Source of the DNA: a bacterium
GTDB lineage: Bacteria; Myxococcota_A; Bradymonadia; UBA7976; UBA1532
Length of the DNA: 64,000 nucleotides
NCBI GenBank assembly: GCA_041389985.1
Contig: JAWKQS010000026.1
Coordinates: 56,412 to 120,411, forward strand
Direction of reading: 5' to 3'
The translations under genes and the position numbers were made by a program. Every line of letters starts with the position of its first letter. Position 1 is the stretch's first letter. The notes under the pieces were generated by a model. It did no database searches. It saw only the letters and a program-made list of their open reading frames with translations, and had not been told where the DNA came from. Of this stretch, positions 4,577 through 12,042 are shown piece after piece.

Positions 4577-7500
4577 TCACGCGTCCTTGGCGGAGTCGCC
4601 CCGCAGCAGCGCCACCAGCAGCGCCGCCGTCTGCCGATCGGCGAGCAGGGCGCGGCAGCGGGCGCGCAGCTCGGCCTCGTCGTCGATCTCCTCCCCCGTC
4701 ACCCGCCCCACATGGCGCGCCACCCGCAGCAGATCCGCCAGCGGCAGGGCCTCCGTCGCGTCCACCTTCACGTGGCGAGAGGTCCAGGCGGCGGCCCGGG
4801 GGCCTCGGGGTGCGCTCGGGCAGGCGCGATCCCCAGCGCGCCGCGACCCGCGGCCGGACGCGCAGGGGCCGGCCCTCCCGCGTCGTCGAGGCGTCGACGG
4901 GCATGAACCGCGGGCCCTCGGCGGTGCCCAGCAGCGCCATCGCCCACAGGTGATCCGGCTCGTCCACCTGGCCCCGGTCGTAGATCCACCCCGTCGCGAC
5001 GGCGGCCGGCACCCCCGCCCGGCGCAGCAGCTCGACGGCCAGGACGTTGAGCTCGTAGCAGACCCCGGCGCCCAGGTGCCGCGCGTCGCGCCCCGCGTGC
5101 AGCGCGGCGAGCTGGGCGTTCTGGCGTCCGCGGCTGAGCCGCCGCAGCCAGCCCGCCAGGCGCGGATCCTCGAACCGCGCGGGATCATAGCGGTAGCTGG
5201 CGCGGATGAAGTCGCGAATGGCCAGCGCGCGCTCCATGGGCGCGATGCCGCTGACCCGGTCGACGAGGGCGTGGCACTCGGCGGGCAGCTCGTTGTCGGG
5301 CGCCGTCGGCCGCAGCAGGCTCGCGGGCGCCTCCACCGGGAAGGCCGCGCTGAACTCCGGGGCCTGGCCCAGCGCGATCTCGCACCGGACGTCGGCGTCG
5401 GCCTGGGCGCTCAGCAGCGGCAGGCCCCCGGGCGTGCGGATGACGAGCGCGGGCGGCTGGGCGTCGGCGGACAGCAGGCGGCCGTGCAGCGGGATCGGCA
5501 GCACGGACTCGCCGGCGGGCAGGCGGCCCGCCAGGCTCACCCGGTGGCGGCTCTCCCCCGCCGCGGCCGACCACGCGGGATCGATGGCCTCGGCCGTCCA
5601 GTGCTGCGTCCGCGGGTCGAAGCGGTCGGCGATGAGGGCCGGCGCGTACAGCCAGGGCGCGGGGAGCTGCCGGGGCGCGGTCGCGAACCCGAAGGCGGCC
5701 GGCCGGCCCCGATCTTCGAGCCAGTCCCGTCCGTCATCGAGCTGGGGTCCAACGCCGCCCTGAGGCCGGAAGAACCGGTCATGCCGGGCCTGGAACGGGC
5801 GCCCGTCGGGGGGCGCCGCGCCGCCCGGGCGCGCCAGGCCGCCGGAGGCGGCGCCAGCGGGCGCGGATCGCGGCGGGGGGGGCTCGGGCAGGGGCTCCTC
5901 CCGCGGGCGCTCCGGCTCCTCGGCCCCCCCCAGCCAGCGCCGAAACCGCGCCAGGAGTCCCTGGGCGACCGGGCTCTCGGGGGGCGGCGCAGCCTCCTCG
6001 GCGGGGATGGGGGGCGGCGGCGGGCGCTGTCCCGCCCGATCCGCGGGCCGGGCCGGAGGCTTCACGGGGGGTCGCACGGCCGCGTCGGGCGGGGGAGGCC
6101 GCCGCGCGTCGAGCAGCAGGCGCATGGCGGGCAGCCGCACACAGGCCAGCAGATCCGCCACCAGGGCGATCTGGCCCGGCGTGGGCTTGCCCGGCACGAG
6201 GCGGTCTCGACAGAGCGCGTCGGCGACGGTGGCGAGGTCGGGATCGCCATGCACGACCAGCGTGTCGCCGACGACGGCCGCCGCGACGGGCCAGGTGACC
6301 GGCTCGCCGAGGACCCGACCCGTGCGCTCGATGCAGGTGGCGGAGTGGGCCGTGGGTACCCGGCCGAAGTCGGCCTTCCAGCGCGCCGGCCACCGCCGCA
6401 GCGCCGCCTCCAGCGCCCAGAGCGCCGCGACGCTGGCGCCGAGGTCGCCCGCCAGCGGTCCGACGCCCTGGGCCGTGGGGGCCGCCCGCTCTTCGAAGAG
6501 ATCCGCCGCGGTGGGCACGCCGCACGCGGCGAGGATGGGCTTGAGGTCGTCGGGGTCGCTGTCTCCCGGGTGGACGGTCAGCAGGTCGACGCCGGCCGCC
6601 CGGGCCGCCGCCACCAGCCGCGGCGGCTCGGGCCAGACGAGGCGGGGCTCCGAGGACCAGCACGGCACCAGCCGCCCGCCTGCGTCGGCCGCCACCACCC
6701 CGCGGGCCGGGGCCGCGTCTCCCGCCCGGATCCAGGCCCGCGGCAGCACATCGGCCAGCTCGGGCTCCAGGAGGAGGAGCGCGTCGCCCTGGGCCATGAA
6801 GGCGGTTGCCAGCTCGTCGAGGACGTCGGCGTAGTGCCGCGGGGCCGGGCCCGGCGGAATCCGCAGGGCCGCCACCAGCCGAGGCAGCGTGCGACCGGCG
6901 CTGAACCCGCCGCGGCGCCGCCCCAGCTCGCCCGGCGGCAGATCCCGGATGAGGGTCCGGGCGGCGTGGCGGTACTCGTCGTCGGCCAGGAACCAGGCCG
7001 AGTCGCCCAGGCCCTCCCGCACGGCCTCCGCCGACAGGCGCTTGCCCTCGAGCTGGTCCTCCAGCCAGCGCAGGGCCACCTCGTCCAGCGCGCCCCCCGC
7101 CGGGATGCGGCCCAGGACGTCGGCGAGGCGGGCGTCGTCGGCCCCCCGGCAGCCGAGCCGTCGCCAGACGGCCTCGGGCACATGGGCGCGCAGCGCGACC
7201 GCCGGGTAGAGCGCTGGCGCGTCGCCGAGCAGCCCCTGCACGCCCGGCGTGGGCCAGTACAGGCGCGACGGGGCCCGCAGCCCCCCCTGGGCGTCGAGCA
7301 CCCAGGCGCGATCCCGCAGGCCCAGGGCCTCGATCAGCCGGGGCGCCTCCACCAGCCGGTCCATCAGGTAGCGCGCGAAGGCCAGCCGCTGCTCCCGCCC
7401 CTCGCTGGCGGGGTGCTCCAGGAGCGCCTGGAGCGCCGCGTCGTCCAGGTCGGGCGCCGCCCCCGCGCCCCGCAGCAGCGCGCGCGTCGCCGCGTCGTAG

Positions 7501-9695: not shown

Positions 9696-12042
9696 GCCGA
9701 GGCGCCGCAGCAGGTCGCCCTGGCTGGCCTGGATGGCCGCGTCGACCAGCGGGGGCGCGCCTCGAGGCGGCGCAGCCAGCCACCGAGCGGGCCGTCGGCC
9801 GGCAGGAAGACGGCGTGGGGGCCGCGGGCCTGGCGCAGGTGTCCGCGCTCGTCGGGGACGAGGGCCGCCTCCCTCACCTGCTCAAGCGCCGACGCCGGCC
9901 GGCCCGCCAGCCACCGCAGCACCCGCCCCGCGCCGGCGCGGGCGACGATCGCGGCCGCATCGGCGGCCAGATCCGCGAGCACGTCGTCGGGCGTCAACGC
10001 CGCCACCCCCAGGCGAGCCCAGAGCGGCGCCAGGTGCAGGTCCGCCTCCAGCTCGGGGGCGAGAAGCGCCCGGCGCGGTCCCGCCAGGGCCCGCAACTCG
10101 GCGTCCGCCCTCAGGATTTCAGACGGCGGGTGCAGCCCGCCCCGCCCATCGGGCAGCAGCCGCAGGGCGCGCAGGCCGTCGACGGGCCAGCGCTCGCGCG
10201 CGACAAACCGGAGGATGACGGGCATCGCGTCGACCAGCCAGGCGGCCTGGGGGTCGGCGGCCTGCCGCAGCAGCCCGGCCAGGTCGGCGGCCTCCAGCGG
10301 GCGCGCCCCCAGATCCCGAGCCACGGCCGCGAGGGCCGGGGGGAGCGGGGCGACGGGCCGTCGACCGGGGGCAGCGCCGAGGACTCCGGCGAGCGCGGCA
10401 TCCGGCACGAGCCAGGCGGCGGCCGGCGTCGTCGGTCGGCCCTGGGCGTCCGGCAGCCAGGGCACATCCAGCACCGCCTCCTGGAAGGCCAGCGCCACGC
10501 GATCGAACGGCGCGACCACCGCCCGGCGAGGGGCGACCGCCATCAGGCTGCGGACGTCCAGGCCGGCCTCGACCCGGCGACGCACCAGCGTCCCCAGCAG
10601 GCCGCCGGCCCGGTCGAGAGCCGCGTGGTTGCCGGGGTCGTCGGGATCGATGCGCTCGCGATCGACGGGCACCGCGAAGCGCGCGTGGATCAGGCAGTCC
10701 AGCCCGCTCGCCTGGCGCGTGGGCAGGAAGGCGTGCACCGACGGCTCGCCCGCCGGCCACCCCATGGGCTGCCCCTGGGCGTCGAGGGCCACCGCCACCA
10801 GGACCTCATCGCCCGGGCCCCGGGCCACGTCGGCCCGGGCGGCCGCCACCAGGAAGCCGCGCCGGACCACCCGGGCGTCCACCTCGTCGACGAGCTCGAC
10901 GCGATCGTCGCCGGTGCCCAGGCGGCGCGTCACGCGGCGTCGCCCTCGGGGATCCTCCACCTCGATGGTCTGGAGGCTCTGCAGCGTCAACAGGAGCTGC
11001 GCCGGCAGCGCCCGCGCCCGGGCCGCCAGGGCCGCCGCGCCGCGCTCCGGATCGTCGGGCTGGCGCAGCGGCAGCACCAGCGTCGTCCCGCCGCCCTGGG
11101 GACGCCGCGCCAGGGGCCGCGGCAGCGAGACGTCGGCGATCTCGAATGCGAAGACATCGGAGTAGATGCGTGGCCGCTCGCAGACGGCATAGACCGACTT
11201 GAACCCGACGCCGAACAGGCCGATGTGGCCGGCGACCTTGGTGGTCTGGCCGATGGACAGCACCCCCACCACATCGCGCACATCGAAGGGTGCCCCGTCG
11301 TGGCGCACCTCGACCGTGTCCTCGGTGAAGGTCACACGCCATGACCGGGCGCCGGCGTCGTCCGCGTTCTGGAGCAGCTCGGCCAGAAAGTGTCCGGGTT
11401 CCGTATAGATACGCTGAGAGAGCAGCTCCTCGGCGCGCGCCAGCGACAGCGAGCGCGGCTGGGCGGCGAGGACGTCGAGCACCTGATCGCCGAAGGCCTG
11501 GCGCCGCGCGCGCAGGGCGTCGTCGGCGCCGAGACCTGCGAGGGCGTGGCCAGGAGGACGAGCAGGTGGTGGTCGGCCAGGGTCGCCCCCGAGGCGGCGG
11601 CGGCCTCGGCCTCCGCCTGGAGGCGCCCCAGGGTCGCGGGGGCGTGGCGACCCAGCCACCGGAGGATGACGCAGCTCTCGGCGAGGCGCGCGAGGGCTGC
11701 TCCACGCAGCGTCCGCGCGAGCAGCGCGGCCAGGCTGGCCCGGGCCTCGGCGCCGCCGGTGAGGCTGCCCGCCCCGAGGGCCCGCGCCAGCCCCGCGGCG
11801 GGGAGGCCCCCCATCACCTCCGCCAGCGCCGCCCGGATGCCCGGCTCGTCCACCGCGCCCGCCGCCAGCAGGCCCGCCAGCAGGCGCGCGAAGGGCTCGT
11901 GATCGGGGCCGGCCGACGTCAGCCGCACCAGGGTCGCGAGGCCCTCCCGGCCGCCAGCGCCCCGTCGATGACGGCGACCTGGGCAGCGAACGGCGCCCGG
12001 GCGACGGCGGCCCAGGCCTCGGCGGTGGGTGCATGCGCCATG
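9692..12042 (-). CDS. Giant protein, N-terminal segment: sacsin/HSP90-like GHKL (Bergerat-fold) ATPase domain
   Basis: ORF 9692..12058 contains …RIYTEPGHFLAELLQNADDAGARSWRVTF…GHIGLFGVGFKSVYAVCERPRIYSDVFAFEI…, the sacsin-repeat-region / HATPase motifs (ELLQNADDA; GxFGxGFxSvY). The first ~190 aa of the called ORF are R/G/P junk. Protein-like sequence instead continues in the frame of ORF 11332..12429 (…LATLVRLTSAGPDHEPFARLLAGLLAAG…) and from an ATG at ~12042 (MAHAPTAEAWAAVARAPFAAQVAVIDGALAAG), implying two or more frameshifts near 11350-12000. Confidence 0.55.

Follow-up and report, generated by a model that had tools for sequence, protein, structure and literature searches.

Tiamat, a defence system reported to consist of a single gene and to include a PD-(D/E)XK domain (bioRxiv 10.1101/2024.10.26.620412), is the first point of comparison for the giant gene analysed here. 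This gene lies at 4577..12041 on the minus strand of a 64,000-nucleotide (nt) stretch of contig JAWKQS010000026.1 (assembly GCA_041389985.1, Myxococcota_A), hereafter the window, and its corrected product of 2,489 amino acids (aa) is predicted to join a sacsin-type GHKL ATPase head to a transglutaminase-like end through a long repeat array. The Tiamat protein, TmtA, likewise has an N-terminal sacsin-type GHKL ATPase head, and in both TmtA and the giant family a stand-alone gene encodes one large polypeptide whose opposite end is enzymatic. The head (aa ~209–560 of P0043, an intact relative) matches seven PADLOC TmtA models (PDLC03964–03972), with a best E of 1.3e-38, but the matches cover only positions ~15–441 of profiles that are 1,302–1,655 long, roughly their initial quarter to third. 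For the other ~1,900 aa, which comprise the repeats, the linker and the C-terminus, PADLOC gave no match, nor did it give one at E ≤ 1 for the headless relative P0042 or the repeat region. The effectors differ as well, being a PD-(D/E)XK/DUF3883 nuclease in Tiamat and a Cys-His-Asp transglutaminase-like domain in the giant family; the giant protein is also ~1,000 aa longer than TmtA and, unlike Tiamat, its family has a housekeeping context and seemingly vertical inheritance. A search of the corrected open reading frame (ORF) with Pfam found no PD-(D/E)XK/DUF3883-type nuclease, and PF13020 was seen only in distant matches of ~680 aa. An earlier note on this DNA, made from the letters alone, had anticipated HEPN-type partners for prokaryotic ATPases of this kind; the more distant prokaryotic sacsin-ATPase matches carry DUF3883 instead. 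Tiamat was reportedly first described by Millman et al. in 2022, and to our knowledge its protein is the only prokaryotic sacsin-type GHKL ATPase with an experimental phenotype; literature searches returned no paper describing the mechanism of Tiamat.

Three further systems each share a part of the design. Eukaryotic sacsin combines three sacsin repeating regions with DnaJ and HEPN domains and, in vertebrates, UBL (PMC3710099). Its three ATPase modules contrast with the one head, ~12–13 short repeats and transglutaminase-like end of the giant protein; DnaJ, HEPN and UBL gave no Pfam match at E ≤ 1 in the corrected ORF, and sacsin chains in the PDB (SR1 structure 5v44) show marginal sequence similarity, with E of 0.04–0.14. 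TgpA is embedded in the inner membrane, has its transglutaminase domain in the periplasm and lacks an ATPase. Only the soluble module is shared between that periplasmic domain (PDB 6g4h) and the giant protein, at 16% sequence identity, and the giant protein, unlike TgpA, has no obvious signal peptide or membrane segment, as judged by eye only. In P. aeruginosa, TgpA is important for viability and carries a eukaryotic-like transglutaminase domain (PMC3507681). Finally, giant HEPN–transglutaminase–SF1 (superfamily 1) helicase–Vsr proteins of Actinobacteria have been proposed as conflict proteins (Anantharaman et al. 2013, PMC3710099). Like the present family, they join an NTPase with a transglutaminase-like peptidase in a single polypeptide; their NTPase is an SF1 helicase, against GHKL here, and HEPN, Vsr and winged helix-turn-helix domains were not detected in the giant protein, so that the likeness lies in design logic only.

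We consider it moderately probable that three propositions hold jointly for this locus: that it is one gene broken by assembly error, that its product is an ATP-gated protein-modifying machine, and that this machine has a lineage-specific cellular role. The evidence for each is set out below.

One gene and its interruptions

The earlier note had proposed that three consecutive minus-strand ORFs, 9692..12058, 8220..9695 and 4548..8144 (ORFs A, B and C), all of which are present as listed, form one gene of ~2,480 aa. In this window the G+C content is 70–80% and long ORFs occur in every frame, so that ORF length proves nothing, and codon-position G+C and homology were used in its place. The proposal is borne out. 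The segment 4577..12041 on the minus strand, from an ATG at 12041 (the earlier note gave 12042 and was off by one) to a stop codon at 4577..4579, is a single, stand-alone gene on the chromosome and encodes a protein of 2,489 aa; its relatives include 46 species-representative loci that encode an uninterrupted ORF of ~2,100–3,000 aa with sacsin-type N-terminal and transglutaminase C-terminal domains. In the present assembly the gene is interrupted by eight frame changes of 1–2 nt and one in-frame TGA, and nine edits (eight indels and one stop) restore a single ORF of 2,489 aa that shares 63% identity from end to end with P0043, an intact relative of 2,479 aa with which the gene is collinear throughout. 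In the NCBI annotation only a 596-aa piece of it appears as a protein (P0001, hypothetical protein R3F60_22780).

The third-position G+C plot and a seven-state Viterbi trace indicated that the coding frame switches more often than first noted. The frame map itself was built from intact relatives by phmmer searches against three-frame pieces and by a sliding 20-mer scan; the N-terminal, middle and tail regions of the gene went undetected by tblastn under composition statistics, and translated all-vs-all BLAST was dominated by off-frame matches rich in Ala, Arg, Pro and Gly when uncorrected and was usable, although insensitive, with SEG and composition statistics. Naming each frame by the window coordinate of the first base of the codon modulo 3 (mod n, minus strand), alignment to the intact relatives places the coding sequence in mod2 from 12041 to ~11960, mod0 to ~11550, mod1 to ~9753, mod2 to ~8245, mod1 to ~8146, mod2 to ~7688, mod1 to ~7568, mod2 to ~4800 and mod1 from there to the stop at 4577..4579. 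The read-through from one frame into another is, by alignment to these relatives, true homology and no artefact of high G+C. The mod1 peptide LATRLAEPTWA of the window is the counterpart of LARLADPTWA in P0042 and LMARLAEPTWA in P0043, and the window peptide RFKLGRRIRVEAVDGGMHRP corresponds to RFKLGRRLRIQAVDGTFHRP of P0043. Each junction is bridged by single ORFs of relatives. The A/B junction lies within both P0021 (910 aa) and P0014 (937 aa). ORFs B and C, the junction between them and the tail all fall within P0042 (1,784 aa), which runs open to the edge of its contig, and P0043 spans the whole. The read-through that the earlier note described at the two ORF junctions thus stands, and its count of two gives way to the eight frame changes and the stop.

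The breaks can be placed closely on the minus strand. The first (11932..11958, mod2 to mod0) is an apparent 1-nt deletion in a G run, and the second (11532..11561, mod0 to mod1) is a further apparent 1-nt deletion. At the third (9738..9764, mod1 to mod2), which forms the A/B junction, a C5 run (9751..9755) stands where C6 is expected. The fourth (8227..8255, mod2 to mod1), as a result of which a false stop appears at 8220..8222, looks like the loss of 2 nt from a (GC)n run, and at the fifth (8127..8150, mod1 to mod2) the run at 8144..8148 reads G5 in place of G6. The sixth and seventh both fall within 7548..7688, where a 1-nt insertion at ~7676 opens a short mod1 stretch and a 1-nt deletion at ~7560 closes it; this stretch holds the in-frame TGA at 7646..7648, which aligns to Glu in P0043 and to Arg in P0042. 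The eighth (4778..4803, mod2 to mod1) lies at or near the C5 run at 4798..4802.

Comparison among the copies of the gene suggests that the fragmentation is most likely a consensus error of a long-read metagenome-assembled genome (MAG). Break points differ between MAGs: the closest relative, L010 (81% identity), has one break only, at a different place, and in L001 the first frame change lies ~400–900 nt upstream of the position homologous to the A/B junction of the window. All eight broken copies bear long-read-style names (HK-STAS, MFD, 'ont', STL-MYX, 'contig_N', a 6-Mb contig), and those on MEGAHIT/SPAdes-style contigs are all intact, the sequencing technology being deduced here from assembly and contig names. 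Against the closest orthologue, L010, the ratio of nonsynonymous to synonymous substitution rates (dN/dS) is 0.15–0.29 in each of the four uninterrupted stretches that were tested, all situated downstream of breaks one and two. The types of lesion that interrupt the gene recur elsewhere in the window, in an acetate kinase gene and in several kinase genes; in three of its Ser/Thr kinase genes the profile match is interrupted at Pfam positions 79, 167 and 169, exactly where the frame changes.

A pseudogene, in which the frameshifts and the stop are real in the DNA of this genome and the gene is decaying, would speak against assembly error, and we regard it as improbable. It would account for nine disruptions in 7.5 kb, the first at about codon 30, a density seemingly above a rough estimate for the rest of the window, and would agree with the annotation of nothing but the 596-aa piece; G/C runs of at least five are, moreover, only modestly denser in the gene than outside it (4.8 vs 3.9 per kb). 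Decay fits poorly, however, with lesions of the same types in the acetate kinase and kinase genes, with a run context that places three junctions in C5/G5 runs and one each in a shorter G run and a (GC)n run, with a closest relative that is broken at another site, with broken copies that all apparently come from long-read-type assemblies, and with the low dN/dS downstream of the first two breaks. Far less credible is an arrangement of three or more separate, translationally coupled genes, in which the GTGA at 9692..9695 would be a real stop and start, or of programmed frameshifts. The 4-nt overlap between the stop of ORF A and the first GTG of ORF B and the superficially similar three-piece layout of L001 would suit it, yet the conserved coding frame passes each ORF boundary ahead of the stop or start, the frame change in L001 is displaced by ~400–900 nt relative to that of the window, and 46 genomes have one continuous ORF. 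Eight non-conserved shifts of differing sign are likewise incompatible with programmed recoding.

Domain architecture of the 2,489-aa protein

The protein opens with a conserved domain of ~190 aa (11475..12041, minus strand), read in frames mod2, mod0 and mod1, which has no match in Pfam and to which no fold is assigned. In mod0, 11964..11545 is matched by the N-terminal ends of P0009 and P0004 (independent E of 5e-10 and 2.6e-8), and the start peptide MAHAPTAEAWAAVARAPFAAQ agrees with P0043. The segment that follows (10514..11461, minus strand; aa ~195–510) comprises a sacsin-type GHKL, or Bergerat-fold, ATPase with a transducer-like second domain. On ORF A, Pfam SACS (PF25794) scores 44.6 bits against a cut-off of 32.8 and NCBIfam P_loop_sacsin (NF047352) 78.5 bits against a cut-off of 50, and both matches recur on the corrected ORF and on P0043. 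Translation confirms the N-box ELLQNADDA at 11354..11380 and the G-box GLFGVGFKSVY at 11189..11221, both on the minus strand, and E222, Q225, N226, D229, G275, F277, G278, G280, F281 and K282 are invariant in 48 sequences. AlphaFold2 (AF2) models of parts of the protein, with predicted local distance difference test (pLDDT) scores of 92.7 and 85.2, likewise predict a GHKL fold nearest sacsin SR1 followed by an S5-like transducer domain. The assignment of a sacsin-type ATPase in the earlier note is confirmed in this way, and the alternative of an unrelated ATPase, when checked by profile, came out sacsin-type; judged from profiles and motifs, the N-terminal Bergerat-fold ATPase is genuine.

The central region (6348..10501, minus strand; aa ~515–1900) is a tandem array of ~12–13 α/β units of ~100 aa each. 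A motif of two hydrophobic residues followed by P-(T/D)-x-x-G…P, which marks a β-hairpin, recurs with a period of ~100 aa from aa ~529 to ~1790, and profiles of single units detect other units with independent E of 1e-8 to 1e-4. Each unit is modelled by AF2 as a helix, a β-hairpin and a helix. No relative of the array was found in Pfam, PADLOC or the PDB. The earlier note had described a middle of ~1,400 aa of Ala/Leu-rich helical sequence; the region exists at about that place, although as tandem α/β repeats rather than as a helical stretch. Beyond the array, the Pro-rich linker that had also been noted is present in the translation (5793..6125, minus strand; aa ~1975–2085) and is the region of lowest conservation and most gaps in the 48-sequence alignment.

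At the C-terminal end, a TgpA-like β-sandwich domain (5370..5690, minus strand) precedes the transglutaminase-like, papain-fold core (4896..5282, minus strand). Transglut_core (PF01841) exceeds its cut-off of 23 bits both on ORF C (35.6) and on the corrected protein (33.8), and with SACS it is the only Pfam match on the corrected ORF. The predicted catalytic residues, all confirmed by translation, are Cys2330 (5058..5060), His2366 (4950..4952) and Asp2385 (4893..4895), on the minus strand. They are invariant in 30 C-terminal fragments, and in the 48 full-length proteins Cys2330 and His2366 are each kept in 47 and Asp2385 in 46. The AF2 model likewise predicts a papain-like transglutaminase fold. 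A Cys-His-Asp transglutaminase-like domain, as first proposed, is accordingly genuine at the level of profile and alignment, and its triad appears intact. The protein ends in a helical tail of ~65 aa with the stop codon (4577..4775, minus strand), read in mod1, which aligns to the C-termini of P0042 and P0043 and is present in many loci.

Family, inheritance and genomic setting

A scan of one genome per GTDB species, with loci mapped by ORF calling and phmmer, returned 80 loci, and the giant gene occurs in at least 57 related loci from species-representative genomes. An exhaustive HMMER search of 1.84 billion cluster representatives (clusters at 50% identity) found 205 clusters at E ≤ 1e-3; among the best 150 of these 205, 85 are 2,022–3,130 aa long, and 82 of the 85 contain both signature motifs. 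Most members of the family are 2,100–3,000 aa long. The family is found mainly in Myxococcota, with some members in bins labelled Vulcanimicrobiota/Eremiobacterota, Obscuribacterales and Planctomycetota, and the close relatives of the best protein match all come from Myxococcota MAGs. A cultured carrier exists, Paraliomyxa miuraensis SMH-27-4, whose intact orthologue at locus L033 has ~2,900 aa. The family is already in public databases, unnamed, where records call its members 'hypothetical' or 'transglutaminase-like putative cysteine protease'; the ~100-aa repeat array is new. The earlier note had not recognised the architecture from described families, and full-text literature searches likewise found no paper describing a protein that combines a sacsin ATPase with a transglutaminase.

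Every complete locus examined carries the same effector. A different C-terminal effector was considered for the long ORFs of L027, L070 and L074, three loci beyond the 46, which had no transglutaminase match in the first phmmer pass and a weak Pfam match or none, and was rejected when the family profile found the transglutaminase with E of ~1e-100. The family tree has two deep clades, with taxa clustering within each. One MAG, F1-80-MAGs165, has two full-length paralogues, L014 and L030 (2,679 and 2,986 aa), and their placement in separate deep clades suggests an old duplication. Inheritance looks largely vertical, with two ancient paralogous clades, and selection is purifying. Ten further loci, L075–L084, belong to a separate sacsin-ATPase family of ~1,010–1,090 aa without the transglutaminase domain, in Actinomycetota (Tessaracoccus, Arthrobacter) and in bins labelled Gammaproteobacteria, Saccharibacteria, Cytophagia and Methanofastidiosum.

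The setting of the locus in the window is housekeeping, with no defence island. Its neighbours encode a peptidyl-prolyl isomerase (PPIase), a kinase, GATase_4, DUF2293, PheS, PheT, a histidine kinase and an oxidoreductase, and none of them is a defence or mobile-element gene. De novo clustering of flanking ORFs found no conserved neighbour among 54 loci; the sole recurrent flanking family is that of Ser/Thr kinases, whose position and orientation vary. The DUF2293 gene (12269..12814, plus strand, assigned by profile match), whose co-occurrence the earlier note had proposed to survey, adjoins the giant gene in one of 84 related loci, the syntenic closest relative L010, and was rejected as a functional partner. 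The GATase_4 gene (3662..4489, minus strand), downstream of the giant gene, was rejected on the same ground, its adjacency, like that of pheS and pheT, being shared with L010 only.

Several other features of the flanks are recorded here. The only sigma-70-like promoter match in 4300..12500 lies at 4496..4523 (minus strand), between the stop codon of the giant gene and the start of GATase_4, and suggests separate transcription of GATase_4; for the giant gene itself, the promoter and terminator scan gave nothing informative. The pheS (12899..14455) and pheT (14458..16254) genes, both on the plus strand, are found past DUF2293 at a distance of ~0.9 kb from where the giant gene starts, and the PheS ORF has an N-terminal extension of ~240 aa ahead of its class-II core domain. 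In two Myxococcales MAGs, genes for putative endonucleases of the Uma2 family (PF05685) adjoin the giant gene or lie near it (L001, 17660..18508; L002, 5863..6432), and they do not recur in the flanking-ORF clustering.

Farther along the window, 26888..28642 (plus strand) encodes an acetate kinase fused in-frame to a PTAC/PduL-type phosphotransacylase, an unusual AckA–PduL fusion. A TAG codon at 27326..27328 takes exactly the place of position 175 of the Pfam Acetate_kinase profile, between positions 174 and 176, and is read as a consensus error. The split Ser/Thr kinase genes (~2339..3696, 29116..31507 and 34306..36515, all on the plus strand) change frame at ~2752, at 29788 and 30129, and at 35056, 35758 and 36175, respectively; two of the three are fused to FGE-sulfatase (formylglycine-generating-enzyme-like) domains. 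Short frame excursions in the codon-position G+C trace at 33138..34442 (minus strand), 36448..38059 (plus strand) and 43264..44341 (minus strand) suggest, from that trace alone, further indel errors.

Proposed mechanism and cellular role

GHKL ATPases such as Hsp90, MutL, GyrB and MORC dimerise or close a clamp upon ATP binding and are reset by hydrolysis. By analogy with these proteins, the head of the giant protein may dimerise or close as a clamp, driven by its binding and hydrolysis of ATP. A macromolecular client would be bound by the long repeat array, and the cysteine enzyme on its flexible tether would cleave a protein target or transamidate it, by cross-linking or deamidation. An ATP-gated machine of this kind is proposed because the head, the array and the triad are conserved under purifying selection while the tether of the enzyme is flexible. 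For its role, we prefer a lineage-specific cellular function, for instance in the remodelling or quality control of proteins in the manner of sacsin, to a mobile immune one, on the grounds of the fixed effector, the two old paralogous clades, the clustering of taxa, the purifying selection and the housekeeping neighbours; this is the weakest step of the argument. Three considerations weigh on the other side: the mechanism is deduced from the identities of the domains alone, the fold of the repeats has no recognisable relative among solved structures, and the best defence-database matches of the ATPase head, those to Tiamat TmtA, favour an immune role.

The immune alternative would make the protein a Tiamat-like single-protein anti-phage or conflict system, in which the ATPase acts as sensor or switch and the transglutaminase-like domain as a toxic effector that leads to abortive infection. 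The strength of the seven TmtA matches speaks for it, as do the single-gene organisation of Tiamat with its PD-(D/E)XK domain and the presence of DUF3883 in other prokaryotic sacsin-ATPase matches. Layouts that combine a giant NTPase, repeats and a peptidase, the transglutaminase-like type included, are known from conflict systems (PMC3710099, PMC8195603), and the family is found mainly in lineages that general knowledge often regards as having large genomes and complex lifestyles. We nevertheless hold this alternative to be rather unlikely. The TmtA profiles are matched over their first quarter to third only, and ~1,900 aa of the protein lie outside any PADLOC match. The effector is constant in all complete loci examined, taxa cluster in a tree of two old paralogous clades, and dN/dS is 0.15–0.29; moreover, the neighbours are pheS, pheT, a PPIase gene and others of that sort, with no conserved partner and no defence or mobile-element genes. 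Of the defence-type link drawn in the earlier note, the resemblance of the head to TmtA thus remains, while the neighbourhood does not support it.

With a lineage-specific cellular role as the favoured reading, a broader interpretation can be put forward tentatively, and it may well prove wrong: the family may correspond in bacteria to the sacsin design, with a giant scaffold built on a GHKL ATPase and coupled to a covalent protein-modifying end. In one form of this interpretation it would be a cytoplasmic, ATP-driven machine that serves protein quality control or remodelling in Myxococcota and a small number of other phyla; in the other, it would be related to Tiamat but fixed in the chromosome, with proteolysis or cross-linking in place of nuclease attack as its output. 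Sacsin-type GHKL ATPases have a wide distribution among prokaryotes, and human sacsin is a disease protein; in the present family the same ATPase head is predicted to be joined, through an undescribed repeat array, to a different output domain that looks catalytically intact. Many apparent split genes in the window, and apparently in other long-read Myxococcota MAGs, are probably consensus errors. The cultured carrier makes the prediction of ATP-gated proteolysis or transamidation testable, and either form of the interpretation, if true, would provide a first functional handle on prokaryotic sacsin-like ATPases and on the ~100-aa repeat module.

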